IMG/VR virus record: IMGVR_UViG_3300027784_000002
Coordinates: 1 to 41,206 of that record
DNA: 41,206 nucleotides
Origin: a virus
Reading direction: 5' to 3' (one strand)
Positions 2,151-40,076 of this stretch are shown here, piece by piece. The translations under genes were made by a program, and so were the position numbers. The notes under the pieces were generated by a model, which had not been told where the DNA came from, did no database searches, and worked only from the letters and a program-made list of their open reading frames with translations. The first letter of the stretch is position 1. Each line of letters begins with the position of its first letter.

Positions 2151-2312
2151 TTAATAATTTAATTTAATATAAGAGACCAAACCATCTAACTCTTTTGCTA
2201 TATCTTCGCTTAATTCTTCGTGTACAACCTCCTTAAACTCTTTGTTTTTGTATTGTTCATTAAGATGTTTTCTCAACCACCATAAATGAGTAATTATTGT
2301 TTTATCGTTCAT
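2151..2312 (-). CDS. Hypothetical small protein (53 aa; below the ORF-track cutoff)
   Basis: Hand translation of the minus strand gives MNDKTIITHLWWLRKHLNEQYKNKEFKEVVHEELSEDIAKELDGLVSYIKLNY. It fills the gap between neighbours. A variant of the conserved leader motif lies upstream (2335..2350). Confidence 0.45.
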   Translation of the reverse strand: MNDKTIITHLWWLRKHLNEQYKNKEFKEVVHEELSEDIAKELDGLVSYIKLNY

Positions 2313-2334
2313 AACTTAATTACTTAATTAATAA

Positions 2335-2637
2335 TTACGACTTTATAATTCTAAAACAAGTATTTCTGTCTTTTAATTTTAGCTTTAAATACTTGTTGAA
2401 AAAATCTCTTTGCGTTAGGTTCATAAAGACAAAGCTATTTTCATTTTTTCCAAAGCTATCTTTTAAATATAATCTTTTCATATAGTCATCTTTATTCCAT
2501 TTCGGTAAAAACACCTCCGCTTGTAGAATGTCTTTTAATTTGTCTAGTGTTTCCCTTGTTATGTTTATTGTTTGCCTATAACAAGTTCCGTCTTTGTCCC
2601 ATTGTCTTTGATAATTGATAGCAAACTCTTTTTTCAT
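2335..2637 (-). CDS. Hypothetical protein (100 aa)
   Basis: ORF track. The conserved ATAAAGGTCGG leader motif (2658..2676) lies upstream of its ATG. Confidence 0.6.
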   Translation of the reverse strand: MKKEFAINYQRQWDKDGTCYRQTINITRETLDKLKDILQAEVFLPKWNKDDYMKRLYLKDSFGKNENSFVFMNLTQRDFFNKYLKLKLKDRNTCFRIIKS

Positions 2638-2727
2638 AATTTTAATAACTTAATTTATAATCCGACCTTTATAATCCTCTCATTACCACCCACTCCCTCC
2701 CTTTAAGGAATGGGCAGTATCAAAGGA

Positions 2728-3366
2728 CTATACTCTCTTTTCTAGCGGAACGTTGTTCCGGATATATGCTTTTACTTGCTTTATTTTCTTTTCTGTTTTC
2801 TCTTTTATATCACGATCCACCGCACTCTGTGCCTCCTCAATCATATCCTTAAACATATCGTCTCCTACAAACCCTCCACAACTATCAATGACTTCTCCGT
2901 CTTTCTCAACAACGTAAGCGTGTATATTATTAGCAAGAATATCATTCCACTCCTCTACCAACCTCCTAGCAATATCCTTCGCCTTGTCTCTCGTCAATCC
3001 CTTTCTCCTCTTTACAAACACTACTCCCAATTGGGAGACGTCCCAACCCCTATCCGGATAATTACCCTCATAAGAGAGAGATAAATTTATCATTCCGTGA
3101 ATGTATGCCTCTAACCCAAAACAGTGGTATTCTTTCTCAATCTCTTTTCCTCTCTCCTCATCCTCAGTATCCCAGTTATCTCCTCCCATAATATACGCGC
3201 AAACCTCTCTCTCAAACCCCTCTCTCTCAACTGAAAACTCTCTATGAAAACCCACCAGAAAGAGATCCTCATTCTCCTCCTCCTCCGGTGTAAAAGGATA
3301 ATCATAATCTTGGTAGATGTTTATAGAGTACGAACGATATTTTTTTGTCTCAATTATATCTTCCAT
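2728..3366 (-). CDS. Hypothetical early protein (212 aa), acidic N-terminus, AYVVEKDGEVIDSCGGFVGDD motif
   Basis: ORF track. Largest ORF of the early arm. The motif recalls an uncharacterised phage/plasmid family, but no family can be named from memory. Confidence 0.65.
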   Translation of the reverse strand: MEDIIETKKYRSYSINIYQDYDYPFTPEEEENEDLFLVGFHREFSVEREGFEREVCAYIMGGDNWDTEDEERGKEIEKEYHCFGLEAYIHGMINLSLSYEGNYPDRGWDVSQLGVVFVKRRKGLTRDKAKDIARRLVEEWNDILANNIHAYVVEKDGEVIDSCGGFVGDDMFKDMIEEAQSAVDRDIKEKTEKKIKQVKAYIRNNVPLEKRV

Positions 3367-3400
3367 AATTTACGAACTTTAATAATTTATAATACAACCT

Positions 3401-3808
3401 TTATCTTGTCTCAATCTCCTCCTCCAACTCATGGCCTTCTTTACTGTGCGCCCAGTCAAAAGGAACAGAGTAAACCTTTACCTTCTCCGGATAAACGCAA
3501 TAAAGATACTCAATATCTCCGTGAAAGTCCTTACAGATACCAAAACCTAGAACCTCAAAACCCTCACTTCTCCCTCCCCTGTATTCCTGCAAACTCCTAT
3601 CCGTCTCATTTGCAAAATACTGCAACGTCCTTGCGGATAAATACTCAACATCATACCCCCTTGCCAAAAGAAACCTTTGCACAAAAGGAATAAGAAGAGG
3701 CAAAACACCGTCCGGATAACCGTCCGAATGTTTATAGATCAGTGCCTCAAACTCCTCAAAACTTTTCTCCTCATTCTCATAAAAAGCAATGTTACAACGT
3801 GTAGACAT
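3401..3808 (-). CDS. Hypothetical early protein (135 aa), IYKHSDGYPDG motif
   Basis: ORF track. First gene downstream of the promoter at 3856..3884, with the leader motif at 3831..3845. Confidence 0.65.
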   Translation of the reverse strand: MSTRCNIAFYENEEKSFEEFEALIYKHSDGYPDGVLPLLIPFVQRFLLARGYDVEYLSARTLQYFANETDRSLQEYRGGRSEGFEVLGFGICKDFHGDIEYLYCVYPEKVKVYSVPFDWAHSKEGHELEEEIETR

Positions 3809-3855
3809 AATAAATGATAATTAAATGAATAATACGACCTTTAATAACTACCCCA

Positions 3856-3884
3856 ATTATAAGCGATAACAATATAAATGTCAA
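3856..3884 (-). promoter_or_regulatory. Sigma70-type early promoter (leftward)
   Basis: The minus strand reads aatcccTTGACA-17 nt-TATAAT, followed by the AAAGGTCGT leader and an ATG at 3808. Confidence 0.65.
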
Positions 3885-3950
3885 GGGATTATGAAGTGAA
3901 AGGAGTAAGAGATATCCGGTAATTCTCTCATAACTTTCTCATTATCACCA

Positions 3951-4078
3951 CAGAGAAAGAAACAAAAAGAAACACATAAGAGAAAGGGAAAGGATAAAGG
4001 GAAAAAAAAGGAAGGAGAATAGGGGAAAAGAAGGGAAAAGAAAGGAAAATGAAGGGAAATAAAGGAGGGAAATGAGCA
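3951..4078. repeat. Polypurine (A/G) tract with about 10-nt phased GGGAAA units
   Basis: The plus strand is almost all purine. Positions 4021..4070 read aggggaaaag aagggaaaag aaaggaaaat gaagggaaat aaaggaggga. Confidence 0.85.
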
Positions 4079-4226
4079 GAAAAAAATACAGCGCGAAGCA
4101 ATTTTCTCTCAATCCGGCCTTTATAATAGTATTCTTACGCTTAAAATAAAAAGAAAAAACCTTTTTTAGAAGTAGATTTGTTCCTAAAAAGTGCGATTTG
4201 CCACGTAGAGAGAGACAAAACGATAA

Positions 4227-4250
4227 CCTTGTGGAAAACCTTGTGGAAAA
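4227..4250. repeat. Exact tandem 12-mer x2 (ccttgtggaaaa), each containing a DnaA-box-like TGTGGAAAA
   Basis: Read directly. TGTGGAAAA differs at one position from TGTGGATAA, the complement of TTATCCACA. Confidence 0.8.
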
Positions 4251-4312
4251 CTCTCATTCTCTGTTAAAAACCAAAAGACGCCCAGAGCATTCCGGACGCC
4301 TTTTTTCTTCTC

Positions 4313-4531
4313 TTATAGGTACAAAATCGGATCCTCATCTCCGGCCAACTCCATTGCCATATCAACCCTTCCGGCATCAATCTGTTCATACATGTCCGCG
4401 CTTAATCTTCTGCGTGCTTCTTCTCTGCATTTAGGACTATCGCAATAGCCGTACATTGCATTCGTTCCGTAATAGTTTTTGCCGTGAGTTTCCCCCTCCT
4501 TTTCACAAATATCACAATCATAGTAATACAT
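4313..4531 (-). CDS. Cys-rich small protein (72 aa)
   Basis: ORF track 4313..4576, trimmed to the internal ATG (MYYYDCDICEKEG...). The conserved leader motif (4551..4568) lies 25 nt upstream of that ATG and directly follows the upstream stop. Confidence 0.55.
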   Translation of the reverse strand: MYYYDCDICEKEGETHGKNYYGTNAMYGYCDSPKCREEARRRLSADMYEQIDAGRVDMAMELAGDEDPILYL

Positions 4532-4572
4532 AAAAACGAACTTTAATTTTTTAATACGACCTTTTTTATTCC

Positions 4573-4890
4573 TCACAAAAATTTTCTTCTGTATTCTTCG
4601 TATATATTATTAGCCTCCTGTATCCAACTATCAAGGTTTGCCAGTGCTATCTCTGCTTCTGTATCTTCCCTCTCTGCGTCCCTTTCCAGAAAGTCTCTGT
4701 CTTCTTTTGCTTCCAGTATTCTATCCGGCATATCTACCTCAAAACTTGTATATTCTCCAAAATCGTGAGCGTTTTCTTTTTCCCAAACTCTTCCTCCAAT
4801 TTTCCCGAACTCCTCTTGTAAATAAAGAAGTGCTTCCTCTTGTTTTTTTATGGGAGTATCAAAAGTATCCCAAGATCCAATTTTGTTCAT
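4573..4890 (-). CDS. Acidic hypothetical protein (105 aa)
   Basis: ORF track. First gene after the promoter at 4940..4968. Confidence 0.6.
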   Translation of the reverse strand: MNKIGSWDTFDTPIKKQEEALLYLQEEFGKIGGRVWEKENAHDFGEYTSFEVDMPDRILEAKEDRDFLERDAEREDTEAEIALANLDSWIQEANNIYEEYRRKFL

Positions 4891-4939
4891 AATTTTAATA
4901 ACTTAATGCTTTAATAATACGACCTTTTTATATATTATA

Positions 4940-4968
4940 AGTATAAGCGATTGTCTTCTACTTGTCAA
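4940..4968 (-). promoter_or_regulatory. Sigma70-type early promoter (leftward)
   Basis: The minus strand reads aatcccTTGACA-17 nt-TATACT, followed by AAAAAGGTCGTATTA and 29 nt to the ATG at 4890. Confidence 0.65.
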
Positions 4969-4972
4969 GGGA

Positions 4973-5170
4973 TTATAGTCTCCGGAGTGCTTCTTTTATT
5001 CTCTTTATGTTTGTGTCTTTCGTTGTCTGAATAACTATGTTCCGGCCGTCTTTGTATGGCCTGAATTTCAATAGTCCTTTTCTGTATAACCTGCCAATAT
5101 ATTTTATCCGGCCGGCGTTGCTTTCTACAAAAATTCCGTCTCTTGTTGTATGGTTTTTTATGTTCAGCAT
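4973..5170 (-). CDS. Basic small protein (65 aa; alternative start at 5248 gives 91 aa)
   Basis: ORF track 4973..5248. Region 5171..5226 is homologous to the intergenic spacer at 5517..5578. GAGGAG lies 4 nt before the ATG at 5170, which favours the internal start. Confidence 0.5.
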   Translation of the reverse strand: MLNIKNHTTRDGIFVESNAGRIKYIGRLYRKGLLKFRPYKDGRNIVIQTTKDTNIKRIKEALRRL

Positions 5171-5222
5171 TTTACTCCTCTTATCTCCACTCTCTACCGT
5201 AGTAAAGAATGGAGTAAAGGGA

Positions 5223-5441
5223 CTAACTATGATCTCTACCCTCTCCACAATACACGCAATATCCTCCGGGGTTCATAGAGTGCTTACATTCCTCCTCTTC
5301 CTTTTCTGTTTTATCTCCTTCGTGCTCTTCTATCTTCTCTCTTATGTCTCTCACTAATTCCTCTATATCATCTCCATTCAACGGCTCATCAAAGCTTGCT
5401 CTTCTGTTTATGATAATCTGCTCTAATGTTTTCTGTATCAT
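5223..5441 (-). CDS. Acidic small protein (72 aa) with C-terminal CxxC
   Basis: ORF track. First gene after the promoter at 5488..5516. Confidence 0.6.
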   Translation of the reverse strand: MIQKTLEQIIINRRASFDEPLNGDDIEELVRDIREKIEEHEGDKTEKEEEECKHSMNPGGYCVYCGEGRDHS

Positions 5442-5487
5442 ATTATTTAACTATTATTTAATAATCACGACCTTTGTTACTACTATC

Positions 5488-5516
5488 AGTATAATCTATC
5501 TACAAACATATGTCAA
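5488..5516 (-). promoter_or_regulatory. Sigma70-type early promoter (leftward)
   Basis: The minus strand reads aatcccTTGACA-17 nt-TATACT, followed by AAAGGTCGTGATTA and 26 nt to the ATG at 5441. Confidence 0.65.
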
Positions 5517-5575
5517 GGGATTTACTCCATTTATCTCTACTCACTTTCACCATAAAAGCAAGTAGAGTAAAGGGA

Positions 5576-5716
5576 CTATATTCTCCTCACCACTTCTCTT
5601 GCACCCTTCTTATACACGGTAACGCAAACAAGGTTGCCTTCTCTATCATATACGGCCCAATTCCTCCCGTTCCACTTCCTCATGCTTGGTTGTTTCTCTT
5701 TTGTATCTTCTGACAT
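5576..5716 (-). CDS. Hypothetical small basic protein (46 aa)
   Basis: ORF track 5576..5758, trimmed to MSEDTKEKQ.... The leader motif (5735..5750) and the upstream gene's stop (5745..5747) both lie inside the longer version. Confidence 0.5.
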   Translation of the reverse strand: MSEDTKEKQPSMRKWNGRNWAVYDREGNLVCVTVYKKGAREVVRRI

Positions 5717-5744
5717 AATAAATATATTGATTTGTAAACGACCT

Positions 5745-5939
5745 TTATTCTCTTCCAATCTCTTTGTACCAATCCTCTAACTCTGCAATGAAGTCGCAAG
5801 TATAGTACTTCGGATAGTTCTCCACTGCTATATCCCAAAGTCTGTTGATGAAATACTTCACTTCTGTCTCATCAGGTTTGCTCTCTATCATGTCCACAAG
5901 TTCTTCCTTTGATTTGTTTAATAGTTCTCCTCGGTTCAT
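5745..5939 (-). CDS. Hypothetical small acidic protein (64 aa)
   Basis: ORF track. The leader motif at 5958..5975 lies 23 nt upstream of its ATG. Confidence 0.6.
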   Translation of the reverse strand: MNRGELLNKSKEELVDMIESKPDETEVKYFINRLWDIAVENYPKYYTCDFIAELEDWYKEIGRE

Positions 5940-5968
5940 TTTTATGTTACTTGGTTTGTAAACGACCT

Positions 5969-6139
5969 TTATCTAATACCACACTGCTCTTGTTGCCACT
6001 CAGTGTAATAGAAGTTTTCATATTGCTCTTCCATTCTCTCCCATTTATTACACTCATACTCTTCATACTTCCCGATAACAAGCAAAGACATGGCAAAGAA
6101 TAATATAGCAATGAAAGTGGTTATGATTACAACTCTCAT
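5969..6139 (-). CDS. Small membrane protein (56 aa; below the ORF-track cutoff)
   Basis: Hand translation gives MRVVIITTFIAILFFAMSLLVIGKYEEYECNKWERMEEQYENFYYTEWQQEQCGIR, with an N-terminal TM helix. First gene after the promoter at 6180..6207. Confidence 0.5.
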   Translation of the reverse strand: MRVVIITTFIAILFFAMSLLVIGKYEEYECNKWERMEEQYENFYYTEWQQEQCGIR

Positions 6140-6179
6140 GATTTATGTTGATTGATTTGTAAACGACCTTTATACTCTA

Positions 6180-6207
6180 ATTATAATCTACCACAATTAT
6201 TTGTCAA
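6180..6207 (-). promoter_or_regulatory. Sigma70-type early promoter (leftward), divergent from the late promoter
   Basis: The minus strand reads TTGACA-16 nt-TATAAT, followed by tagagTATAAAGGTCGTTTA and 24 nt to the ATG at 6139. Confidence 0.65.
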
Positions 6208-6265: not shown

Positions 6266-6294
6266 TTGACTTGCTTCTCTTACTCTATTATAAT
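6266..6294 (+). promoter_or_regulatory. Sigma70-type promoter placed for a leaderless terS transcript
   Basis: TTGACT (6266..6271), 17 nt, TATAAT (6289..6294), then 6 nt (aacaca), then ATG at 6301. Confidence 0.6.
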
Positions 6295-6300
6295 AACACA

Positions 6301-6795
6301 ATGCCTAAGAAAGAAGTAAAACTCACACCAAAAGAAGTAAGGGACCGCTTACAAGAGTACTTTGATTACTGCGACCCTCACATTGATGAGGTAGAACTTG
6401 TGATACACGAAACAAAGAAAGGGGGTGGGAAGGAACAGGTTGGTGAGATAAGAAAGGTACCGACCAAGACCAAACAAAAACCCTACACACTATCTGGCAT
6501 AGCAAATTGCCTAGGAATTACTACAAAGCAATATAAGGAGATAGCTAATCCTGACTACAAATCCCGGCACGGCTCGGTCAGGGTCTCCCCCAAAGCTAGG
6601 GACGAAATGATAATGGGGCTCCAAAAGGTGGAGGAGTTCGCCGAAAAGAAGCTATATCAGGGTGCTTCGTCAGGGGCGCAGTTTGCGCTTAAAAATATAG
6701 CGGAGTGGAAGGATAAGATGGAGGTGGAAAGTCCCGGGTTGTCTAATAGTATAGCGCAGCTGGAGGAAAAAATTAGTAAGGCGTTAAAAAAATAA
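6301..6795 (+). CDS. terS: Terminase small subunit
   Basis: The LQEYFDYCDP ... KPYTLSGIANCLGITTKQYKEIAN pattern is typical of the Terminase_2/P27-type TerS HTH. Lies directly upstream of TerL. Start is set at the internal ATG because the promoter lies inside the longer ORF (6208). Confidence 0.7.
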   Translation: MPKKEVKLTPKEVRDRLQEYFDYCDPHIDEVELVIHETKKGGGKEQVGEIRKVPTKTKQKPYTLSGIANCLGITTKQYKEIANPDYKSRHGSVRVSPKARDEMIMGLQKVEEFAEKKLYQGASSGAQFALKNIAEWKDKMEVESPGLSNSIAQLEEKISKALKK

Positions 6796-10760: not shown

Positions 10761-11432
10761 ATGCTAGATCCAGAAGAGACAAACCCCGAACAAGATTCAC
10801 AAGAAGGCGATCCTCAAGGTGAGCCTCAGGAACCCGAAGGACAAGATCCTCAAGGTTCCCAGAAAAAGGAATCTGAGGGAGATATTCAGGAACCTCCTGA
10901 AAGAAAATCTGAAACCGAGAAATATAAGGAGCAAGTAGAGCAGGATAAGCGACTTAAAAGGATTGAGTATCAAACAAGAAAGCTCAAAGAAGAAAACGAG
11001 AACCTTAAAAAACAACTCGGTGAGGATTATAAGTCGCCTGAATCATCCTTTACACAAGGTGAACCCCAAGGTGATCCTCAAGAAGATGATTTGAAAGTAT
11101 TCGACGAGCTGGATAAAAAAGAGCGTCAAATGGAGGTTAAGGAGTTCATTAAGGATAATCCCGAATACGAAAACCTTAAAACCACACTGGAGAAGTTCAT
11201 AGAGCACCCTGCTTATAAAAAGGTACCTGTGGACTTTATTGCCAAAGCTCTTAGTTCAGATCGTGCGGAGAAAATAGGCGCAGAAAAGGCATCCAAGGCT
11301 CAAAAGCAGTCTCAAATGTCTCAAGTAGGAGGTCACCCTGCAAAACCGCAGCAAAACCAACCCAAAGATTGGCTAAATACTACAAACGAAGAGTTTGAAA
11401 AAGAGTTAGCCAAAGTAAAAAAAGGTCAGTAG
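10761..11432 (+). CDS. Scaffolding protein (putative)
   Basis: Acidic, coiled-coil-rich, with low-complexity GDPQ/GEPQ repeats. Located between the portal and the major capsid gene. Confidence 0.55.
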   Translation: MLDPEETNPEQDSQEGDPQGEPQEPEGQDPQGSQKKESEGDIQEPPERKSETEKYKEQVEQDKRLKRIEYQTRKLKEENENLKKQLGEDYKSPESSFTQGEPQGDPQEDDLKVFDELDKKERQMEVKEFIKDNPEYENLKTTLEKFIEHPAYKKVPVDFIAKALSSDRAEKIGAEKASKAQKQSQMSQVGGHPAKPQQNQPKDWLNTTNEEFEKELAKVKKGQ

Positions 11433-12446: not shown

Positions 12447-12857
12447 ATGTTCGAATGTAATTGCGGAAAAAAATTCAAATCCGAGAAGGGACTCAAAATC
12501 CATGAGAAATCGTGTGAGTTTGAGTCTCAAGACTCGGTGGATGAAAGTCCTGAAGAAAAGACCGAAGAGCAGACTAAAGAGAAAGAGGTGAGGAAGAGAA
12601 AAGAACAGATGACTAAAGAACATTTGGATAGTCAGGAAAAGATTATGTTTCATATACCTTTATCTAGCGGAGAGAGTGATGATTCTTTTGATATTGTCCG
12701 TATAAATGGTTACGGGATACAGATCAAAAAAGGAGTATCACTCAGTCTTCCTAGACAGGTAGCTGAAATGCTTGCCGAAAAGTACAATGTTGAAATGCAG
12801 GCCGGAAAGGAAAAACTTGTTAATCGTTCAGATGATGTGACAGATGCTCTTCAATAA
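12447..12857 (+). CDS. Head-module protein with N-terminal C2H2-like (C2HC) zinc finger
   Basis: MFECNCGKKFKSEKGLKIHEKSC has the classical C-X3-F-X5-L-X2-H-X3-(H/C) spacing. It is followed by a K/E-rich linker and a C-terminal domain (VRINGYGIQIKKGVSLSLPRQVAEML). Confidence 0.6.
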   Translation: MFECNCGKKFKSEKGLKIHEKSCEFESQDSVDESPEEKTEEQTKEKEVRKRKEQMTKEHLDSQEKIMFHIPLSSGESDDSFDIVRINGYGIQIKKGVSLSLPRQVAEMLAEKYNVEMQAGKEKLVNRSDDVTDALQ

Positions 12858-12888
12858 ATGGTCGATTAAAAATTTTAATTTTTAGCTT

Positions 12889-23611: not shown

Positions 23612-23640
23612 TTGATAAAATTATAAATAAGTAATACAAT
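23612..23640 (+). promoter_or_regulatory. Sigma70-type promoter placed for a leaderless transcript
   Basis: TTGATA (23612..23617), 17 nt, TACAAT (23635..23640), then 6 nt (aaaacc), then ATG at 23647. Confidence 0.5.
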
Positions 23641-23646
23641 AAAACC

Positions 23647-23841
23647 ATGGACTTAAAAGATCAAATACAAAAAGATATAAAAGATAAAGAGAGGGAGAAA
23701 GAAAAGTTGGTAGAAAGTTTTCAGCAAGTAAGCAGACAGATTCAAGAATTAAACCAGCAATCTCAAGAACTTGGAAAACAAATAGTCGAAGCCAACGCGG
23801 TGATAAAAAGTCTTAAAGGTCTATTAAACAAAGATAAATGA
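23647..23841 (+). CDS. Small coiled-coil protein (64 aa)
   Basis: ORF track. Heptad-like K/E/Q-rich sequence. Confidence 0.55.
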   Translation: MDLKDQIQKDIKDKEREKEKLVESFQQVSRQIQELNQQSQELGKQIVEANAVIKSLKGLLNKDK

Positions 23842-33076: not shown

Positions 33077-33124
33077 AAATTGCGGCAGTCATAAAAAGGT
33101 CTATTACTTTAATAAAACAATAGT

Positions 33125-33833: not shown

Positions 33834-33921
33834 TTTGACACGATTTTTCTCTTATGTATAATTAGAAAAAGTATTAAAAACATGAGGATACACAGACGTA
33901 TAATATCTTTATTTAATTCAG

Positions 33922-33949
33922 AAACCACCTGACTTCGGGTGGTTTTTTG
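33922..33949 (+). terminator. Rho-independent terminator after the lysis cassette
   Basis: aaaccacc-tgacttcg-ggtggttt followed by a T run. Confidence 0.75.
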
Positions 33950-33961
33950 TTTGCCTGCTTC

Positions 33962-33997
33962 TGTGCGGGGGTTTTTTGCAAAATTTTCCCCTGCACA
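33962..33997. promoter_or_regulatory. GC-rich inverted repeat (TGTGCGGGG ... CCCCtGCACA) with an AT palindromic loop, at the left edge of the SD cassette
   Basis: Read directly. A 9-bp stem with one bulge and a 17-nt loop (gttttttgcaaaatttt). No T run follows. Confidence 0.5.
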
Positions 33998-34040
33998 AAA
34001 GGAGGGAAAGCACACTAAACAACGAAAGGAGGTGATGTAA

Positions 34041-34169
34041 ATGTATTGTCATGCAAGGTGTATCCATTGTGGCAAAGATGGTTTTCACAGGATCATTGAT
34101 TCAGGTATGAATCGTCTTGTGGTTCTTTGCAAGCACTGCGGACTTGTTTTCCGTATAATCCTTAAGTAG
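34041..34169 (+). CDS. Zinc-ribbon protein (42 aa; below the ORF-track cutoff)
   Basis: Hand translation gives MYCHARCIHCGKDGFHRIIDSGMNRLVVLCKHCGLVFRIILK. A strong SD (AAGGAGGTGA) ends 8 nt upstream of the ATG. Confidence 0.6.
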   Translation: MYCHARCIHCGKDGFHRIIDSGMNRLVVLCKHCGLVFRIILK

Positions 34170-34179
34170 GAGGTATGCT

Positions 34180-34377
34180 ATGTGGTATTCAGGAGGAGAC
34201 AAGCTGAGCCCTGAACAAGAGTTTATCTTCAAGGTTCAAATGCTTGCCGAAAAGTACGATACCGAGGTGGAAATTGACCAGAAAAATAAGACGGTCAACT
34301 TCCTTGCCAAAGATGAAGCAACTCAAATTGCTCTCGCAAAAGAGCTTGAGGACCTTTTTTCTGACAATCTGGTCTAG
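34180..34377 (+). CDS. Acidic hypothetical protein (65 aa)
   Basis: ORF track. SD GGAGG lies 6 nt upstream. Confidence 0.65.
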   Translation: MWYSGGDKLSPEQEFIFKVQMLAEKYDTEVEIDQKNKTVNFLAKDEATQIALAKELEDLFSDNLV

Positions 34378-34388
34378 GGGGTGATGTC

Positions 34389-34679
34389 ATGAATGAGTTC
34401 GAGGTTTTCTTGTTTGATAGTGAATGGGACTTTGAGTTCTGTTGGACTTCCAAGAAGACCTACGGAACAATAAACCCCAGAAAGTCTCTGGTAAAGATTA
34501 ACATTCGGCTTATGCTGATTGAGACACTTTACCACGAATACTATCACACGAAGTATCCCAGTTTTGACGAATCGGCTATTGAGAGAATGGCTCAAACCAA
34601 GGTTCAATCCTTATCGGTTTCTGAAATCATAAGGATTACCGACAAGTTTGTCGCATACTGGGGAAAGGGGGGTGAATGA
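34389..34679 (+). CDS. Minimal HExxH metallopeptidase-like protein (96 aa; SprT/DUF45-like)
   Basis: LYHEYYH contains an HExxH motif. It is preceded by W.S..YG.I......VKINIRL, as in SprT/WLM/DUF45 zincins. SD GGGGGTGA upstream. Confidence 0.55.
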   Translation: MNEFEVFLFDSEWDFEFCWTSKKTYGTINPRKSLVKINIRLMLIETLYHEYYHTKYPSFDESAIERMAQTKVQSLSVSEIIRITDKFVAYWGKGGE

Positions 34680-34960
34680 ATTACTCTCGACACCATGTAA
34701 CACCTCGTTCTCGGATACGTAAGTCCAAGAACACAGTCTTGTTGCCAGAGAAGTTCCATGATAGTTGGCACTACCTCTTTGGTGACCTAACGCCAATCGA
34801 AACAATCTTCTTCTTAAAGGAACTGAATGCCCGAATGCACAAGAAGAGAATTATCACAAAGGGCGAAATTCAGGAACTAAGGGAAGGGATAAAGGAGGGA
34901 CGAAATGAAACAGAACCTCAGAAAAGGACGAAAGGTAAACATCAACCGACACGATCTTAA
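34676..34960 (+). CDS. HNH/His-Me finger-like small protein (94 aa)
   Basis: SRHHVTPRSR...KNTVLLPEKFHDSWHYLFGDLTP resembles small phage HNH proteins (HH..P.s..N..LLP..H..WH.LFG). ATGA overlap with the upstream gene; SD AAGGGGGG. Confidence 0.55.
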   Translation: MNYSRHHVTPRSRIRKSKNTVLLPEKFHDSWHYLFGDLTPIETIFFLKELNARMHKKRIITKGEIQELREGIKEGRNETEPQKRTKGKHQPTRS

Positions 34961-35693
34961 ACCCCGAAAGGACAGGTATCACGCAGACATCGTTCTCTTC
35001 GGAGATACGCATCTCGGACACCCCAACTTCCTTCGGGAAAAAGCACAGGATTTGCTTAACTACTGCCTCAGAACTAGGACTTACATGGTCTGCATGGGCG
35101 ACATGATTGAGAGTGGCATTACTGGCTCTGTTGGAGATAGTATCTATACCCAGACCCTTAATCCACAAGCACAGATGGAAGAAATGATTGATATGCTTAT
35201 GCCATTGGCGAAAGCTGGACTTCTTCTCGGATTGCACGCGGGTAACCATGAGATGCGTATCTTCAAAACATCTGGCATCAATGTCGCCAAGAACATGGCT
35301 GGTTGGCTCGGAGTACCGTTCCTGCACAGTGCTTGCTGGCATCTGTTTCGTGTAAATGGACACAACTACACAATGTATTCATTACATGGTGCTAGTGGTT
35401 CAAAGTTTATCTACACGAAGATTAAGGCGGCTACCGATATCAGCCACTACTTCGGAGCAGATATTATTGCTCACGCACACGTTCACGATAGGGCATCGGT
35501 TGCCATTGAAAGACAGGAAATCGATATGAGAAACAAGCAAGTTGCCTACCGCAAACAGTATATCCTTCTTACTGGTCATTATCTTGGGTACGATTTAAGT
35601 TATGCTCAAGACAAGGGTATGCCACCATCAAAGGTTGGTAGTCCTCGGATTCGGTTGTATGCCAATGATTGGGATATACATATTCGTGAATAG
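34905..35693 (+). CDS. Calcineurin-like metallophosphoesterase (262 aa)
   Basis: The full motif set is in order: LFGDTHLG, CMGDMIESG, AGNHE, LHGASG, AHAHVHD. SD AAGGAGG lies 6 nt upstream. Confidence 0.8.
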   Translation: MKQNLRKGRKVNINRHDLKPRKDRYHADIVLFGDTHLGHPNFLREKAQDLLNYCLRTRTYMVCMGDMIESGITGSVGDSIYTQTLNPQAQMEEMIDMLMPLAKAGLLLGLHAGNHEMRIFKTSGINVAKNMAGWLGVPFLHSACWHLFRVNGHNYTMYSLHGASGSKFIYTKIKAATDISHYFGADIIAHAHVHDRASVAIERQEIDMRNKQVAYRKQYILLTGHYLGYDLSYAQDKGMPPSKVGSPRIRLYANDWDIHIRE

Positions 35694-35701
35694 GGGGAGC
35701 T

Positions 35702-35800
35702 ATGAAACACTTCATAATTTATGTCTCCCTTATGGCCCTGGGTTATGGACTTAAACTACTTCTATGGATTGCCGAAAGAAGGGAGGAAGATGAAGACTAA
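35702..35800 (+). CDS. Small single-TM peptide (32 aa; below the ORF-track cutoff)
   Basis: Hand translation gives MKHFIIYVSLMALGYGLKLLLWIAERREEDED. SD GGGGGAG lies just upstream. Confidence 0.45.
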   Translation: MKHFIIYVSLMALGYGLKLLLWIAERREEDED

Positions 35801-35975
35801 TAGATACAAGTTCACTGACTGGGAGCTGATACACAACAGGTGCGATGAGTGTGGTGGCAAGGTCTACGCAAAACGGATAATGTCCAGAGACCACCTTATC
35901 AAGTGCGATGGTTGTGAAAGGTCAATGCTCATAAAGGAACCTCATGATACATTTACCACTGACTATGTTATTTAG
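35790..35975 (+). CDS. Zinc-ribbon protein (61 aa)
   Basis: ORF track 35721..35975, trimmed to the ATG preceded by SD AAGGGAGG. Contains CDECGG...CDGC. Confidence 0.55.
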   Translation: MKTNRYKFTDWELIHNRCDECGGKVYAKRIMSRDHLIKCDGCERSMLIKEPHDTFTTDYVI

Positions 35976-36070: not shown

Positions 36071-36319
36071 ATGAAACTAAAAGGATTTACAAAAAAAGAA
36101 GTAAAACAAGAAACAAACAAAAAAGTTTATTTGTTTTATACAGACTTCCTTCTTAAAAAAGGAAGACCTCCTTCTTTGCAAGATATTTCAGATAATTTCG
36201 GTTTTACTAGGGAAAGATCAAGGCAGATATTAGAAAGAATGAGTGAAGAGGGTTACCTCTTAAAAGAAGGAAAAGGTAATAAGGTTAAATACAAACCTGA
36301 TTGGATTAACAAAAATTAG
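36071..36319 (+). CDS. Small winged-helix/HTH DNA-binding protein (LexA-N or sigma70 region-4-like)
   Basis: GRPPSLQDISDNFGFTRERSRQILERMSEEGYL resembles both the LexA N-terminal wHTH and sigma region 4 (SrERvRQI). Has its own promoter. Confidence 0.6.
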   Translation: MKLKGFTKKEVKQETNKKVYLFYTDFLLKKGRPPSLQDISDNFGFTRERSRQILERMSEEGYLLKEGKGNKVKYKPDWINKN

Positions 36320-36374: not shown

Positions 36375-36500
36375 ATGCCAAATCCTGCGAAAAACTTTAC
36401 AACTCAACAACAGCAATATGCTCCTTTGTTACAAGGCTTGCAGGAGCCTAGGCATGGGGGAGTATATCAACTTTTGTTGAAAAAGAGACCACTTTTATAG
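36375..36500 (+). CDS. Possible micro-ORF (41 aa) in a promoter-to-terminator mini-unit
   Basis: Hand translation gives MPNPAKNFTTQQQQYAPLLQGLQEPRHGGVYQLLLKKRPLL. The stop lies inside the terminator hairpin. The unit could instead be a small RNA. Confidence 0.3.
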   Translation: MPNPAKNFTTQQQQYAPLLQGLQEPRHGGVYQLLLKKRPLL

Positions 36501-36512
36501 GTGGTCTTTTTT
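36486..36512 (+). terminator. Rho-independent terminator
   Basis: agaccac-ttttatag-gtggtct followed by tttttt. Confidence 0.7.
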
Positions 36513-36863
36513 GTATTCTAGATATAATAGTGGCAGGGAATCTAAGTGCTTATTGATCACTATAAATAAAAGCCCAAGCATTCTAGATATGCAGGATAAG
36601 CAACTAAATCACTGGTCTTCCTCGGACTATAAATGAGGGCCTCGTAAGCAGATTTAGGATAAAAAAAGAAGCGGTAGCAGTGGCGCATTTCGCTGTCGTT
36701 TTTTCCAAACTTACCGGATTGGTTTTTTGCGGAAATATGCTTAAACTCTTCCAAGAGAAAATGGATCTAAGAGTTGAACTATAAACCTTCATAGGGGGAA
36801 TACATTCACTCTTACGCCTCGAAGCAGATTATTATTAAAAGAAGAACAACAACCAAAAAAGAC

Positions 36864-36891
36864 TTGACACCAATTTGTGATATGATAAAAT
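36864..36891 (+). promoter_or_regulatory. Sigma70 promoter with extended -10 for the recombination module
   Basis: TTGACA (36864..36869), 16 nt ending in TGa, TAAAAT (36886..36891). Followed by the ATAAAGGTCGA leader and 29 nt to the ATG at 36937. Confidence 0.6.
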
Positions 36892-36936
36892 TAGAACATA
36901 AAGGTCGAAAATTATTAAGCAATTAAAAATTTTATT

Positions 36937-37545
36937 ATGAAGTATTCTGACATCCAAAAAATAGAAAAGCGCAAAGATTACCAAAACTTGGTATCCTTTG
37001 CAGATCAATACTTAGCCAATGCTAAGAATATTGTCGTTAAAAGCGATGAGGAGGAAAAAAAGGCCGTGGGCCTCAAGGGAGAAATAAAAGACACGATGAA
37101 AAAGGGGGAAGAGATGAAGAGATTTTTCGTTGATCCTCATAAGAAGTTTATTAAAATGATTGAAGATAAGTTCTCAGTGTTAAAGACAATGAAAGAGGCG
37201 GATGATATTCTCAAAGAAAAAATGATTAAGTATCAGGCAGAGAAAGATGAAAAAATAAAAAAAGAAAAAGAAAAGATTGTAGAAAAAATGAAGAAAGATA
37301 AGAATGCGGATTTAGGGGAAGCAACTGAAGCACTTGAAAAAGTGGGAGCATCTGAAAAAACAATAGAGGCCGAGGGACATAGGGTTACTTACCGGGTAGA
37401 TAGAAAAGTATTGATCGAGGACGAATCAAAACTTCCAAGAGAGTATCTAATACCCAATGTGTCTCTTATTAAAAAGAAGGCAAAAGAGGGTGAAGATATT
37501 CCCGGAGTAAAGGTTGTTGATGAAAAAACACCAGTTACTTATTAA
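36937..37545 (+). CDS. Siphovirus Gp157-like protein
   Basis: Coiled-coil N-terminal part. The C-terminal VTYRVDRKVLIEDESKLPREYLIPNVSLIKKKAKEGEDIPGVKVVDEKT matches the remembered Sipho_Gp157 pattern (iP.eyl... G..ipGv). Confidence 0.6.
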   Translation: MKYSDIQKIEKRKDYQNLVSFADQYLANAKNIVVKSDEEEKKAVGLKGEIKDTMKKGEEMKRFFVDPHKKFIKMIEDKFSVLKTMKEADDILKEKMIKYQAEKDEKIKKEKEKIVEKMKKDKNADLGEATEALEKVGASEKTIEAEGHRVTYRVDRKVLIEDESKLPREYLIPNVSLIKKKAKEGEDIPGVKVVDEKTPVTY

Positions 37546-37566
37546 AAGTCGTAAATATGAAAAATT

Positions 37567-38313: not shown

Positions 38314-38945
38314 TGCACATTCACGCTGAAAACAAAGTGACGCCAAAGCCCTATCTTTCGTGGAGTCAGTATAACCTGTTCCGGAACAGTCAGATGAGAT
38401 ATGTTTCTACATACATCTACGGAGAGAGGTTTCAAAATGAGGAAATGGATAAGGGGAGGGAGCTTGCGGAAATACTTGAAAAAGATGAGAAGGTTGATGA
38501 TTCTGATATAGAAAGTGTAAGGATAATGCTTCCCACTCTAAAGGAAAGAGAATATGAGATAGAGACTTCTCTCGGTGATGTTCCTTTATACGGAAAGTTT
38601 GACGGTTTTGACGAAAAAAACTTTGTCCTTGACGAGATTAAGAGTGGAAAGAATGGCTGGGATCAGAGAAAGGTTGATAATTGTGAACAGATAACATTCT
38701 ACTCTTTAATGATTTATCAAAAATTTAAGAAGCTCCCAAAAAAGATAAGATTACACTACGCGCCCACGGAAAGGGTGGCTGGAACTATAAGATTTACTGG
38801 AGAGGTGGAAAGTTTCGTAACAGAAAGAAGTCTAAACGATGTATTGGGATTACTGGTGCCCATTAAAAGAACATGGGAGGGAATTCAAAAGGTCTCATTA
38901 AAAGAGTATAAGAGTTTAGGAAAATATGATCATCAAAGCGCTTAA
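38313..38945 (+). CDS. PD-(D/E)XK exonuclease (Cas4/RecB-like)
   Basis: GKFDGFD ... VLDEIKSGK (D...ExK) followed by QITFYSLMIYQ. Paired with the annealase candidate. Confidence 0.6.
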   Translation: MHIHAENKVTPKPYLSWSQYNLFRNSQMRYVSTYIYGERFQNEEMDKGRELAEILEKDEKVDDSDIESVRIMLPTLKEREYEIETSLGDVPLYGKFDGFDEKNFVLDEIKSGKNGWDQRKVDNCEQITFYSLMIYQKFKKLPKKIRLHYAPTERVAGTIRFTGEVESFVTERSLNDVLGLLVPIKRTWEGIQKVSLKEYKSLGKYDHQSA

Positions 38946-39135
38946 CTATATTCCGGCCGTTATTATAGTGGGAGGTATATTTGTAATATCATTTCATACA
39001 AATATATGGGTTGGATTGTCTATACTTGCGATTATATTGTTCAATAATATATCACTTTATGCACAGATACATGAAGATTTATTAGAAGAAATAATTAAAA
39101 AAATAAATTATGCCAGAAGAAATAAAAGTATTTGA
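38926..39135 (+). CDS. Small two-TM membrane protein (69 aa)
   Basis: ORF track. TM helices IPAVIIVGGIFVISF and WVGLSILAIILFNNI. Confidence 0.5.
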   Translation: MIIKALNYIPAVIIVGGIFVISFHTNIWVGLSILAIILFNNISLYAQIHEDLLEEIIKKINYARRNKSI

Positions 39136-39487: not shown

Positions 39488-39872
39488 ATGTTTAACTTGC
39501 GGAGAAACTCTTGTTAGAAGAGAGACAAGAAAGACGATCCTTTATGCTTGCCCTAATTGGAAGAGTGGATATTGTCCGGGTTTTCTCTATAATCCCAGTA
39601 TACCTTCTTGGAGAGTGGCAAGTGAGAGCTCAATGGGAATGATGTATGATATATCAAAGAAGGACGGAAAGTATTACTGCACGTGTCCGGCCGGAGGGTT
39701 TCAAAAAAAAGAGTGTAAGCATAGGAGGTGGGTTAGAGAGAGTTACGAAAACCTACCTCCTACCAAAGAGGAAAAAGAAGAAAACGAGATAGAAAAAACA
39801 TTCTATTATCTCAAAGAAAAAGGTTTTTTTGAAAATTATAAAAATTACGAAGAATATAAAAAAGGTATATGA
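39465..39872 (+). CDS. SWIM zinc-finger protein with N-terminal Zn ribbon
   Basis: YYCTCPAGGFQKKECKHRRW has the CxC-x(n)-CxH SWIM signature, and the N-terminus has CLTCG...ACPNW. The start is uncertain (39411, 39438 or 39465). Confidence 0.55.
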   Translation: MTDSPQYKCLTCGETLVRRETRKTILYACPNWKSGYCPGFLYNPSIPSWRVASESSMGMMYDISKKDGKYYCTCPAGGFQKKECKHRRWVRESYENLPPTKEEKEENEIEKTFYYLKEKGFFENYKNYEEYKKGI

Positions 39873-40042
39873 ACAAAAAATACAACTGCAAAATATGCAA
39901 AGACGAGAGGTGGATAGAGGTGGATCCAATCCGTCCAGAACAAGTAATTGTACCGAAGTACGAACCTTGCGAGTGTTTAATCAAAGAAACAGAAGACGGG
40001 GAGATAGATGATACGATAGATCCTGATATAAATTATGTATAA
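39869..40042 (+). CDS. Small Cys-rich protein (57 aa; below the ORF-track cutoff)
   Basis: Hand translation gives MNKKYNCKICKDERWIEVDPIRPEQVIVPKYEPCECLIKETEDGEIDDTIDPDINYV. ATGA overlap with the upstream stop. Its own stop lies inside a TAAAGGTCG motif. Confidence 0.5.
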   Translation: MNKKYNCKICKDERWIEVDPIRPEQVIVPKYEPCECLIKETEDGEIDDTIDPDINYV

Positions 40043-40076
40043 AGGTCGACTTATTAAACTTTAATTAAACAAAATT

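Follow-up and report, generated by a model that had tools for sequence, protein, structure and literature searches.

In E. coli, loading of the RfaH type at ops elements also brings ribosomes to genes that lack a Shine-Dalgarno (SD) sequence. In chloroplasts, PPR10 serves as a 'protein cap' that blocks 5'-to-3' decay, and in phage T4 RegA is a translational repressor and RegB a nuclease specific for early mRNAs. Within the CPR, loss of the anti-SD together with a shortened bS1 has been described (PMC9297842), and Roizmanbacteria are reported to possess non-SD 'TAA' ribosome-binding sites (PMC6509639). The box analysed here, a short conserved element upstream of phage genes, is comparable to the ops elements of E. 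coli in its leader position, its strand specificity and its link to SD-less genes.

The window is the full stretch of 41,206 nt of IMGVR_UViG_3300027784_000002. Since relatives of its large terminase (TerL) were found in seven Patescibacteria (CPR) bins, one of them a single-cell genome, the host of this phage is probably a Patescibacteria/CPR bacterium. The other box-bearing phages probably infect Patescibacteria as well. The distant TerL relatives in the CPR bins carry zero to three box copies. All motif coordinates of the sequence-only reading (minus-strand CGACC cores, variants and plus-strand copies) were verified by a recheck of the sequence, and the variant before the major capsid gene is a copy beyond that list. 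The promoters and boxes of the window are:

6180..6207, minus strand: consensus sigma-70-type promoter TTGACA-16-TATAAT, drives the first motif-led operon
6164..6171, minus strand: AAAGGTCG box, starts 8 nt past the -10 of promoter 6207-6180, ends 24 nt before ATG 6139
5963..5970, minus strand: internal AAAGGTCG box, preceding T completes the TAA stop of gene 5969..6139, ends 23 nt before ATG 5939
5739..5746, minus strand: internal AAAGGTCG box, overlaps the TAA stop of gene 5745..5939, ends 22 nt before ATG 5716
5488..5516, minus strand: promoter (CCC)TTGACA-17-TATACT, upstream of box 5468-5475
5468..5475, minus strand: AAAGGTCG box, starts 12 nt past the -10 of promoter 5516-5488, ends 26 nt before ATG 5441
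4940..4968, minus strand: promoter (CCC)TTGACA-17-TATACT, upstream of box 4920-4927
4920..4927, minus strand: AAAGGTCG box, starts 12 nt past the -10 of promoter 4968-4940, ends 29 nt before ATG 4890
4557..4564, minus strand: internal AAAGGTCG box, ends 25 nt before ATG 4531; degenerate second copy AAAGTTCGT at 4536-4544
4115..4122, minus strand: variant AAAGGCCG, heads an ORF-poor CU-rich tract (3900-4112); status doubtful, since no gene follows
3856..3884, minus strand: promoter (CCC)TTGACA-17-TATAAT, upstream of box 3835-3842
3835..3842, minus strand: AAAGGTCG box, starts 13 nt past the -10 of promoter 3884-3856, ends 26 nt before ATG 3808
3395..3402, minus strand: variant AAAGGTTG, overlaps the TAA stop of gene 3401..3808, ends 28 nt before ATG 3366; degenerate AAAGTTCGT at 3372-3380
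2663..2670, minus strand: AAAGGTCG box, adjoins a long hairpin (2735-2672, hairpin first), ends 25 nt before ATG 2637
2337..2344, minus strand: variant AAAGTCGT (one G missing), within the 3' end of gene 2335..2637, ends 24 nt before ATG 2312
11421..11428, plus strand: variant AAAGGTCA, in the last codons of gene 10761..11432, ends 28 nt before the major capsid ATG 11457
12857..12864, plus strand: variant AATGGTCG, ends 24 nt before ATG 12889
23815..23822, plus strand: variant AAAGGTCT, ends 20 nt before ATG 23843
33095..33102, plus strand: variant AAAGGTCT, ends 22 nt before ATG 33125
36864..36891, plus strand: promoter TTGACA-16-TAAAAT, upstream of box 36900-36907
36900..36907, plus strand: AAAGGTCG box, starts 8 nt past the -10 of promoter 36864-36891, ends 29 nt before ATG 36937
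37545..37552, plus strand: variant AAAGTCGT, ends just 14 nt before ATG 37567; weakest candidate
38888..38895, plus strand: variant AAAGGTCT, ends 30 nt before ATG 38926
40041..40048, plus strand: AAAGGTCG box, overlaps the TAA stop of gene 39869..40042, ends 28 nt before ATG 40077

Internal and promoter-proximal boxes are alike strand-specific (gene-sense).

The information is carried by the 8-mer AAAGGTCR, i.e. AAAGGTCG or the same sequence with A at position 8, where T is accepted less often. The sequence on either side holds little information, so that of the long consensus proposed before only this core stands; the remainder is a lineage-specific flank. Of the 11 exact AAAGGTCG copies in the window, ten are in sense orientation and precede a start codon by 20-50 nt (Fisher p = 1.5e-16 for the leader windows, defined as sense-strand -50..-20 of 55 start codons and making up 2% of positions). 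With up to one mismatch allowed, 18 of 41 AAAGGTCG matches fall inside these leader windows (p = 6e-20), and TAAAGGTCGT yields 15 matches, all on the gene-sense strand, compared to 2.3 +/- 1.5 in shuffled sequences (maximum 5). The enrichment over shuffled controls is therefore far above chance and the box is confirmed as a real element. Its variants exhibit no wobble pattern, and their base-change profile suggests strict, protein-like recognition.

The distance from the end of the 8-mer to the ATG was described as near-constant (22-29 nt); it is indeed constrained, but ranges from 20 to 30 nt in the window, with a single outlier at 14 nt. Among about 190 distinct copies from IMG/VR contigs it peaks at 25-29 nt, the bulk being found at 15-39 nt, and a second, promoter-independent contig set agrees with this. 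The spacing is broad (standard deviation about 6 nt) and much looser than that between SD and AUG; compaction of the genome and a minimum leader length could produce such a spacing for any upstream element. The box follows consensus promoters in five cases rather than the four counted earlier. It starts 4-13 nt after the promoter end in the window and in the soda-lake relative L009, whereas the promoters of L254 and L265 end 32-36 nt upstream of a box that is still about 30-36 nt away from the ATG. Hence the distance to the promoter varies overall from 4 to 36 nt, and the position of the box follows the ATG and not the promoter. The evidence speaks for an element linked to the start codon that has its effect in or on the transcript. 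This part of the roles suggested from the letters holds, and the data fit an enhancer and a processing site alike.

The leader that follows the box comprises 20-35 nt, is A/U-rich and G-poor and possesses no Shine-Dalgarno sequence. An SD-like tetramer is wholly missing in 43 of the 55 window genes, and the start codons are found in the A-rich context TAAAAWT-ATG. The exclusion of a normal SD is upheld, as is the claim that the motif has no hairpin partner; the leaders are unstructured, with folding z-scores near 0. The shorter relative AAAGTTCGT does precede the ATGs of genes 2728..3366 and 4313..4531, at 4-5 nt instead of 5-6 nt. The box is used cistron by cistron, but not by all of them: it precedes about 40% of the well-spaced genes of motif-rich contigs. 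Its use is highest in genes with an upstream gap of 25-80 nt (34 of 80) and rare in front of coupled genes that overlap (14 of 120). At 5745, 5969 and 40040 the motif's TAA serves as the upstream stop codon, as stated previously, and so it does at 3401. However, an exact overlap was found in just 11 of 61 copies and promoter-proximal copies have no upstream ORF. The proposed re-initiation role is therefore unlikely; the overlap is a saving of space and lies outside the mechanism.

The box is not restricted to this phage. Two IMG/VR scans revealed the box, in 3-15 co-oriented copies per contig, on at least 45 low-GC viral contigs that are unrelated and differ in their terminases, capsids and early genes, compared to two contigs for a scrambled 8-mer. 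In L009 (71% TerL identity) the box is kept at orthologous sites in another reading frame. The ortholog of the pre-capsid copy is situated at 6593-6600, where the frame of the upstream gene differs from that in the window, which points to selection at the nucleotide level; the ortholog of copy 12857..12864 is an exact AAAGGTCG at 8094, after a terminator. Boxes head structural operons, too: in L103 one precedes the protease/capsid operon, and in the window one precedes the capsid gene. An RNA polymerase, sigma factor or small protein common to the motif-rich phages was not found by all-ORF versus all-ORF BLAST and Pfam. Since the box is common to many unrelated phages that share no such regulator, a host factor is likelier than a phage factor, which narrows the earlier proposal of either one.

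It is possible, although rather unlikely, that RNA is processed at the box or that the box defines 5' ends. Either a sequence-specific host endonuclease would cut polycistronic transcripts at the box or, modelled on the chloroplast PPR10, a box-bound protein would stop 5'-to-3' decay; in both forms each cistron would gain a uniform leader of ~30-35 nt and its own stability. Some copies separate cistrons and others are situated at, or close to, the +1 predicted for a consensus promoter, so that a processed 5' end would match the primary one. Three very stable, RNase III-site-like intergenic hairpins make processing plausible in the same early region, and the protein-like recognition hinted at by the variants and the rarity of boxes before coupled genes agree with it. 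However, no nuclease or binding protein was found and the sequence bears no mark of a cleavage point; the boxes of L254 and L265, which are off the primary 5' end and keep their ATG distance, fit processing without requiring it. An action in transcription, as a one-element promoter used by a middle or alternative RNA polymerase form or as an ops-like non-template-strand signal loading a NusG/RfaH-type factor onto the elongating polymerase, is unlikely. The strict co-orientation upstream of genes, the copies directly after intrinsic terminators (L009 8094, L079 2091, L267 8510), the bases immediately 3' of the box, which in the window are often TATTAT- or TATAAT-like, and the likeness to ops would all suit it. 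Nevertheless, the large contig set revealed no -10- or -35-like signal at fixed spacing from box or ATG, and a transcription unit's first gene always comes with a sigma-70 promoter separate from the box; such a promoter serves seven of eight box-led genes whose upstream gene is on the other strand, the eighth being a gene-calling artefact. Of 103 distinct copies on motif-rich strands, 76 lack both a sigma-70-like promoter and an intrinsic terminator immediately upstream, and only two follow a terminator. Three boxes in series, 200 nt apart, stand behind a single perfect promoter, the position tracks the ATG, and no gene for a sigma factor, gp55-like protein or RNA polymerase was found in the window phage or the other motif-rich phages. 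The box is probably not a promoter on its own.

T4 RegA and RegB are the models for an operator, bound as RNA or DNA by a regulatory protein that times or shuts off a gene set. Sequence-specific recognition suits a protein, small wHTH/HTH genes (36071..36319; L030 2919..3086) are expressed from box-less or leaderless promoters, and the exact window copies cluster in the early arms (2300-6200 and 36900-40100), late genes having imperfect copies only. Still, an operator is quite improbable, since a phage regulator would be expected in all box phages and neither all-ORF BLAST nor Pfam revealed one, exact boxes head structural operons in other phages, and a lone asymmetric 8-mer that is always co-oriented with transcription would be an unusual DNA operator. 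That the box is a functionless by-product of composition or of duplicated leader cassettes is hardly credible. Copies 6171, 5970 and 5746 share a 23-nt leader and copies 4564 and 3402 a second type, families that an independent repeat finder found again, and therefore some local leader duplication has occurred. However, the shuffle and positional tests, the sites kept in L009 and the scrambled control argue against it, and the 8-mer alone is conserved between divergent flanks and before unrelated genes.

We tentatively favour a host-read mRNA leader element for SD-independent translation, i.e. a ribosome loading or standby site. We infer that the box acts as RNA, that its putative reader belongs to the host and that translation initiation is the step affected. 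AAAGGUCR would be a cis-acting element that marks the 5' edge of the 20-35-nt unstructured leader and is read by a host component. A reader associated with the 30S would keep the small subunit immediately 5' of the mRNA stretch filling the ribosome channel, and the first downstream AUG, in the context TAAAAWU-AUG, would then be used. As a loading or standby site the box would be a translational enhancer, and the bound reader could protect the 5' side of the transcript, too. Pairing with the canonical 16S tail is possible for AAAGG only, yet UCG is invariant; this and the lack of wobble among the variants count against ribosome loading. The suggested 16S complementarity was not found, either with E. 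coli 16S or in a search for a 16S gene with a CGACCTTT tail, each of whose six metagenome matches has a normal CCTCC, the 8-mer being a chance occurrence in the spacer.

If the loading-site reading is true, mutated AAAGGUCG should result in altered protein yield per mRNA or altered 30S toeprints. The box seems to be an undescribed gene-expression signal that is read by the host and is most likely linked to translation.

The box noticed in the sequence-only reading occurs in the window far more often than composition would allow, and all coordinates listed there proved to be correct. TAAAGGTCGT with at most one mismatch was found 15 times, compared to 2.3 +/- 1.5 times in dinucleotide shuffles, and 15 of 15 copies are located on the gene-sense strand. 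Exact copies of AAAGGTCG number 11 on both strands, of which ten begin 20-50 nt 5' of a start codon in sense orientation; for the 55 start codons this target comprises 2% of all positions (Fisher p = 1.5e-16). If one mismatch is allowed, 18 of 41 copies fall into these leader windows (p = 6e-20). The eleventh exact copy (10637) is part of a coding region and is conserved as protein sequence in L009, the relative from a soda lake.

The longer consensus proposed before, (W)ATAAAGGTCGTWTTA, fits this phage, but beyond the 8-mer it describes only the phage's own flanks. In an alignment of 21 copies, the information is confined to the eight positions of AAAGGTCG and the flanks are merely A/T-rich. 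Position 8 alone is tolerant in the larger set, with G to A in 13 of 22 leader-context cases and G to T in 4 of 9. The near-constant distance of 22-29 nt to the ATG becomes 20-30 nt when counted from the end of the 8-mer, and a weak variant at 14 nt departs from it. Boxes at the expected starts of consensus promoters were indeed present, at five promoters and not four; there the box lies 8-13 nt after the -10 hexamer, and therefore the transcript is predicted to start just before it. The remaining boxes of the window are situated within operons and have no promoter, and in four operon-internal copies the T preceding the box is the first base of the upstream TAA, so that the reported coincidence with the upstream stop codon is real. 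Equally, the box has no hairpin partner (twelve leaders fold with -1 to -5 kcal/mol and z-scores of -1.9 to +1.3), and at 20-30 nt from the ATG it is too distant for a normal SD, which needs about 5-10 nt.

The 41.2-kb window represents an essentially complete tailed-phage genome with the following features:

6139 to 1501, leftward: early-type genes
about 36000 across the window end to 1268, rightward: second arm
6301 to 33833: structural genes
Encoded proteins: small and large terminase, SU10-type portal, major capsid protein and lysozyme
Giant proteins: two, of 1816 aa and 2129 aa
Recombination module: Gp157-like protein, PD-(D/E)XK nuclease and NinG

An SD-like tetramer within 20 nt of the start is absent in 43 of the 55 genes, and five of the other 12 belong to one foreign-looking island. 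The start codons are embedded in the context TAAAAWT-ATG, with A at -3 to -6 and about -12 to -14, and nine near-perfect TTGACA-N16-18-TATAAT promoters are present. The island itself (34000-35975, plus strand) has a G+C content of 44%, compared to about 37%, and its five or six small genes all possess strong canonical SDs (AAAGGAGGTGATGTAA-ATG, TAGGAGG, GGGGGTGA and AAGGAGGG; for 34000-35700 also AAAGGAGGTGAT); a weak metallophosphatase match is located inside it at 34905-35693. It has the appearance of a segment acquired recently from an SD-using source, which raises the question whether its SDs function in the host.

Some other parts of the genome deserve mention in their own right. Two plus-strand genes show a leaderless architecture, namely terS (start at 6301; TATAAT-aacaca-ATG, 6266-6303) and gene 23647..23841 (TACAAT-aaaacc-ATG, 23612-23649). 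Their mRNAs are predicted to be leaderless, because the ATG follows exactly 6 nt after the promoter. The same layout is found before a small HTH gene of L030, an unrelated motif-rich contig (2885-2921). On the minus strand of the early region there are three long and very stable hairpins (5228-5165, 5580-5512 and 2735-2672; -24 to -33 kcal/mol, z about -6), and each of them starts at an early gene's stop codon, inside the common sequence TAGTCC(C)TTT. None of them has a U-tract and one sequesters the GGAG before gene 4973..5170; possible functions are processing of the RNase III type or an unusual form of termination. The same strand also contains about 200 nt of CU-rich sequence (3900-4112; TCCCTCCTTTATTTCCC..., degenerate 10-11-nt tandem units) that has no convincing ORF and resembles a repeated anti-SD. 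This tract follows the terminator at 4304-4273, lies behind the variant box AAAGGCCG and may represent a non-coding RNA or a region similar to an origin. The region 33835-33975 (plus strand) is a candidate for a small RNA: downstream of a perfect TTGACA-16-TATAAT promoter it has about 110 nt that contain two hairpins resembling terminators and no ORF. It has no Rfam match. Finally, the non-coding gap of about 360 nt at 36500-36860, between the terminator 36470-36510 and the promoter at 36864, could hold an origin or a regulatory region. Rfam gave no matches in the entire window.

The box is not restricted to this phage. A scan of IMG/VR for TTGACA-N16-18-TAWAAT-N4-13-AAAGGTCG resulted in 98 loci (70 distinct sequences), compared to 28 loci (15 distinct) for a scrambled 8-mer of the same composition, and 3-8 co-oriented boxes within 5-15 kb were present at 17 of the 98 loci and at a single control locus. 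A second scan without a required promoter (box, 15-35 nt, TAAAAWTATG) gave at least 120 loci, a raw count that is not comparable with that of the control (109), and only its multi-copy statistic is usable: among the matches listed, 28 of 117 new loci carry 3-15 co-oriented boxes, compared to 1 of 109 in the control. The richest example, contig L267, has 15 boxes in 11 kb, each 5' of a gene. These motif-rich contigs, that is, those with at least three co-oriented boxes, are SD-less, have with few exceptions a G+C content of 29-39% and encode unrelated terminases, HK97-type and other capsids, Mu-F-like proteins, methylases, SSB, Rad52 and HTH proteins.

Neither an RNA polymerase nor a sigma factor or small protein common to the motif-rich contigs was detected by all-against-all BLAST and Pfam/PHROGs searches. 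As only sporadic shared genes were obtained, a shared phage-encoded reader was rejected. Pfam and PHROGs also gave no sigma factor, gp55-like protein or RNA polymerase in this phage or among the 148 ORFs of ten motif-rich contigs, many of which are unannotated. Two phages of other SD-poor hosts that served as controls, Flavobacterium phage 11b and pelagiphage HTVC010P, are without leader boxes. No description of the box was found in the searchable literature: full-text queries with AAAGGTCG and AAAGGUCG led only to primers and the eukaryotic NBRE half-site, and no mention of such a box was found in the literature on CPR phages and CPR ribosomes. Two observations on individual contigs may be added. 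In the unrelated contig L079 (1330-1420), the box behind the promoter is contained in a hairpin with 15 perfect base pairs and a T-run after it (ACTCCCATTAAAAGGT...ACCTTTTAGTGGGAGT), possibly an attenuator or a small RNA that hides the box. The motif-rich contig L030 (1465-2844), like L059, encodes an RtcB-type RNA ligase directly followed by tRNA-Pro(UGG), which is likely a tRNA-repair counter-defence module.

Across the many copies from IMG/VR, the spacing between the box end and the first ATG that starts an ORF of 40 codons or more is most often 25-29 nt and mainly 15-39 nt (both sets; more than 200 copies). Consensus promoters are found at variable distances from the box, with 4-13 nt in many cases and 32 and 36 nt in the contigs L265 and L254, in which the box nevertheless remains about 30-36 nt from the ATG. 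Judged by promoter geometry, many boxes are located within about 1-14 nt of the predicted 5' end, others 25-30 nt into the transcript or internally. A sigma-70-like promoter precedes 25 of 103 distinct copies on the motif-rich strands, an intrinsic terminator two, and neither of them 76. A box-led gene must begin a transcription unit if its upstream gene lies on the opposite strand, and seven of eight such genes have a separate promoter, the eighth being a gene-calling artefact. Boxes are used by 34 of 80 genes with an upstream gap of 25-80 nt, by 21 of 82 with a longer gap and by 14 of 120 that touch or overlap the adjacent gene. The box shares bases with the upstream stop codon in the exact form TAAAGG in 11 of 61 cases; elsewhere this stop is found from -80 to +24 nt of the box start. 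Structural operons elsewhere can also be box-led, for instance the protease-capsid operon of contig L103. No tRNA genes, which would oppose a role in translation, were found behind a box; the only tRNAs found (L030/L059 and L016) are uninformative.

The closest contig with an early region is L009 from the soda-lake sediment bin GCA_003562935.1 (TerL identity 71%). Kulunda soda-lake sediments are the source environment of this clade. The boxes of L009 follow two consensus promoters (5 nt past the -10) and a terminator, and others separate early genes or precede the capsid gene. Both in the window and in L009, the capsid-gene box lies inside the last codons of the upstream gene, but the frames differ (AAA GGT CAG TAG in the window versus GAA AGG TCG CAA TAA in L009), which therefore indicates selection on the nucleotides.

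Close cultured relatives naming a host were not found (best TerL match 26%, best capsid match 38-40%), no close relative was found among GenBank phages, and the proteins of other motif-rich contigs gave no matches to cultured relatives. A 17-mer search for close copies yielded five single matches due to chance. Among species-representative genomes, all eight TerL relatives (43-47% identity) are contained in bins of tiny-celled lineages, seven of them Patescibacteria (Saccharibacteria, Woesebacteria and unclassified bins, including one single-cell genome) and one labelled Nanoarchaeota; phage contigs can be misbinned, but all eight assignments point the same way. The distant TerL relatives are equally SD-less and have only 0-3 leader boxes. 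The bins agree with the published host biology of the CPR, where non-SD 'TAA/AAT' ribosome-binding sites have been reported for Roizmanbacteria (PMC6509639), the anti-SD has been lost in about half of the Parcubacteria, and bS21 is frequently lost and bS1 shortened (PMC9297842).

The box does not match several of the known classes of signals that we considered. Apart from its spacing, an SD is rejected because only AAAGG can pair with ...CCUUU, and U, C and C of the 16S tail stand opposite the invariant UCG. Complementarity to the host 16S rRNA, suggested as a check in the sequence-only reading, was sought in metagenome 16S tails and in E. coli 16S and was not found. A 16S 3' end with CGACCUUU was not detected, in a scan in which CPR 16S genes are possibly under-sampled; the metagenome scan for an altered tail (GTCGTAACAAGGTA-N15-45-CGACCTTT) gave six matches, all with a normal CCTCC and the 8-mer in the spacer by chance, so that an altered tail was dismissed. 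E. coli 16S, 23S and 5S contain no convincing complement of the box (the best one, 23S 2161-2168, is irrelevant to initiation), and the box variants show no wobble pattern. A Bacteroidetes-like 16S (L122/L127, about 560-581) contains ACGACCTTT, an exact 9-nt complement of AAAGGTCGT, in the spacer 9 nt downstream of CCTCC; this concerns one organism only and is most likely chance.

A sigma-70-type promoter (-35/-10, 16-18 nt) is not compatible with the lack of a second conserved element at a fixed distance, and box-led first genes bear a separate TTGACA-N16-18-TATAAT promoter. The spacing would fit the -35 element of leaderless promoters, yet neither ATG-anchored nor box-anchored frequency tables and logos revealed a -10 or a -35-like partner; the true leaderless starts of this phage consist of TATAAT, 6 nt and ATG without a box. 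A single-element late or middle promoter (T4 TATAAATA type) is disfavored, as no phage-encoded sigma-like or activator protein was found by Pfam and PHROGs. The folding of twelve leaders argues against an RNase III site (no stable stem-loop at the box), and a hairpin-bridged split ribosome-binding site as in T4 gene 38 is rejected for lack of significant structure between box and ATG. A lambda-type nut/boxA is opposed by the absence of a boxA-like sequence and of a hairpin and by several copies per operon. Re-initiation, one of the roles proposed from the sequence alone, was not borne out, and the same applies to TURBS-type termination-reinitiation: promoter-proximal boxes have no upstream ORF and the position of the stop is scattered. 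The upstream stop lies about 27 nt before the restart ATG. Chi, KOPS and primase sites (T7 GGGTC/TGGTC) are strand-biased and spread along the replicon regardless of gene starts, and are ruled out by the placement of ten of 11 exact copies in 2% of the positions.

The box is strand-specific, lies downstream of promoters and precedes independently translated cistrons. It is also tied to the ATG and not to the transcription start, has no partner or structure and is present in otherwise unrelated phages. Both sets of properties argue for an element that acts in the transcript and is read by the host, and we class it as a leader element of SD-less mRNAs. It may serve for docking or standby of the 30S subunit, at the 5' border of the mRNA stretch that this subunit covers, a reading that we favor tentatively and to which we give somewhat less than an even chance. 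Our confidence is low because no rRNA complement was found and the variants show no wobble, the spacing is loose and the box is optional; the loose spacing could result from a minimum leader length together with genome compaction. In a more specific version of this idea, the small subunit would bind the box about 30 nt before the start codon, perhaps through a divergent rRNA segment such as helix 26 or a shortened bS1, and would then pick the first AUG in an A-rich context. The phages would have copied this host signal for genes that need independent expression. This version, in which the box is the translation-initiation signal of a CPR lineage that abandoned SD pairing, appears rather doubtful to us.

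A site for processing or for the definition of 5' ends would explain the same anatomy almost as well as docking and would fit a region with three RNase III-like hairpins; we regard it as rather unlikely. An element at the level of transcription and an operator for a regulator are both less well supported than a processing site. The former seems improbable and the latter more improbable still.

Among known systems, the box appears to work most like a STAB-SD or 5' stabilizer, or like an SD-independent enhancer or standby site. STAB-SDs are complete SDs (GAAAGGAGG) pairing with the 16S tail; they bind 30S subunits and slow the decay of the mRNA. Such elements were reportedly described in the cryIIIA leader of B. 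thuringiensis and as a polypurine sequence in early RNA of phage SP82 by Agaisse and Lereclus in 1996 and Hue et al. in 1995. Like them, the box is short, contains purines, lies in many copies near the predicted transcript 5' end and is too far from the start to be a ribosome-binding site; STAB-SDs bind 30S, as the box would in the docking reading, and they also occur in phage early RNA. In contrast, the complementarity of the box to 16S is weak, with AAAGG able to pair and the invariant UCG not, and it recurs in front of single cistrons, preferentially about 27 nt from the start, in genomes without SD use. With the T7 gene 10 epsilon, A/U-rich S1-binding leaders and TMV omega-like CAA-rich leaders, the box leaders share that they are unstructured, A/U- or CA-rich, G-poor and without a canonical SD; those of genes 5969..6139 and 5745..5939 are omega-like (UUUACAAAUCAAUCAACA). 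Enhancers of this kind act through their composition or pair with a particular 16S segment, whereas the box is an exact 8-mer that borders the leader on its 5' side, and no rRNA complement of it was found.

Baez et al. reportedly described Kozak-like, SD-independent initiation in Bacteroidetes in 2019. To our knowledge, no upstream box at -30 has been described for initiation in Bacteroidetes or Roizmanbacteria. The genome-wide lack of SDs and A at -3, -6 and -12/-13 of the start are common to these bacteria and the present phage. Unlike in Bacteroidetes, the promoters here are of the TTGACA/TATAAT type, and the Flavobacterium phage lacks leader boxes. T4 RegB and RegA sites are also short motifs repeated in the initiation regions of many, mostly early, phage genes. 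They act on RNA (RegB cuts GGAG in SDs and RegA binds across the start codon) and require a phage-encoded protein; the box differs from them in its position 20-35 nt upstream and in that no shared phage protein was found. The RfaH ops element is a 12-mer (GGCGGTAGnnTG) in the non-template strand that is read by a NusG paralogue, usually occurs once per operon far from the ATG and recruits a factor that brings the ribosome to SD-less genes. The box resembles it in being strand-specific, in the transcribed leader and at SD-less genes, but is an unrelated 8-mer that precedes single cistrons and keeps to a set distance from the ATG. The intergenic use is shared with chloroplast PPR10 'protein cap' sites. 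These are sequence-specific, define processed 5' ends and aid translation of the downstream cistron; they comprise about 17-20 nt, are specific for single genes and are read by PPR proteins, a family of which we know no member type in the presumed hosts.

CPR ribosomes are devoid of several proteins, and the anti-SD is missing in some lineages. How start codons are found without an SD is, as far as we know, partly understood for Bacteroidetes and not at all for the CPR. Dozens of unrelated phages of presumed CPR hosts carry a sharply defined 8-mer with a preference for a certain distance from the start, which offers a concrete and mutable handle on SD-less initiation. Should the box be a processing or regulatory site instead, it would still be a widespread and previously undescribed phage signal. 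It could be used as a marker for such phages, perhaps also for their host lineage, would aid the prediction of gene starts in these genomes and is a candidate expression element for the emerging genetic systems of Saccharibacteria.
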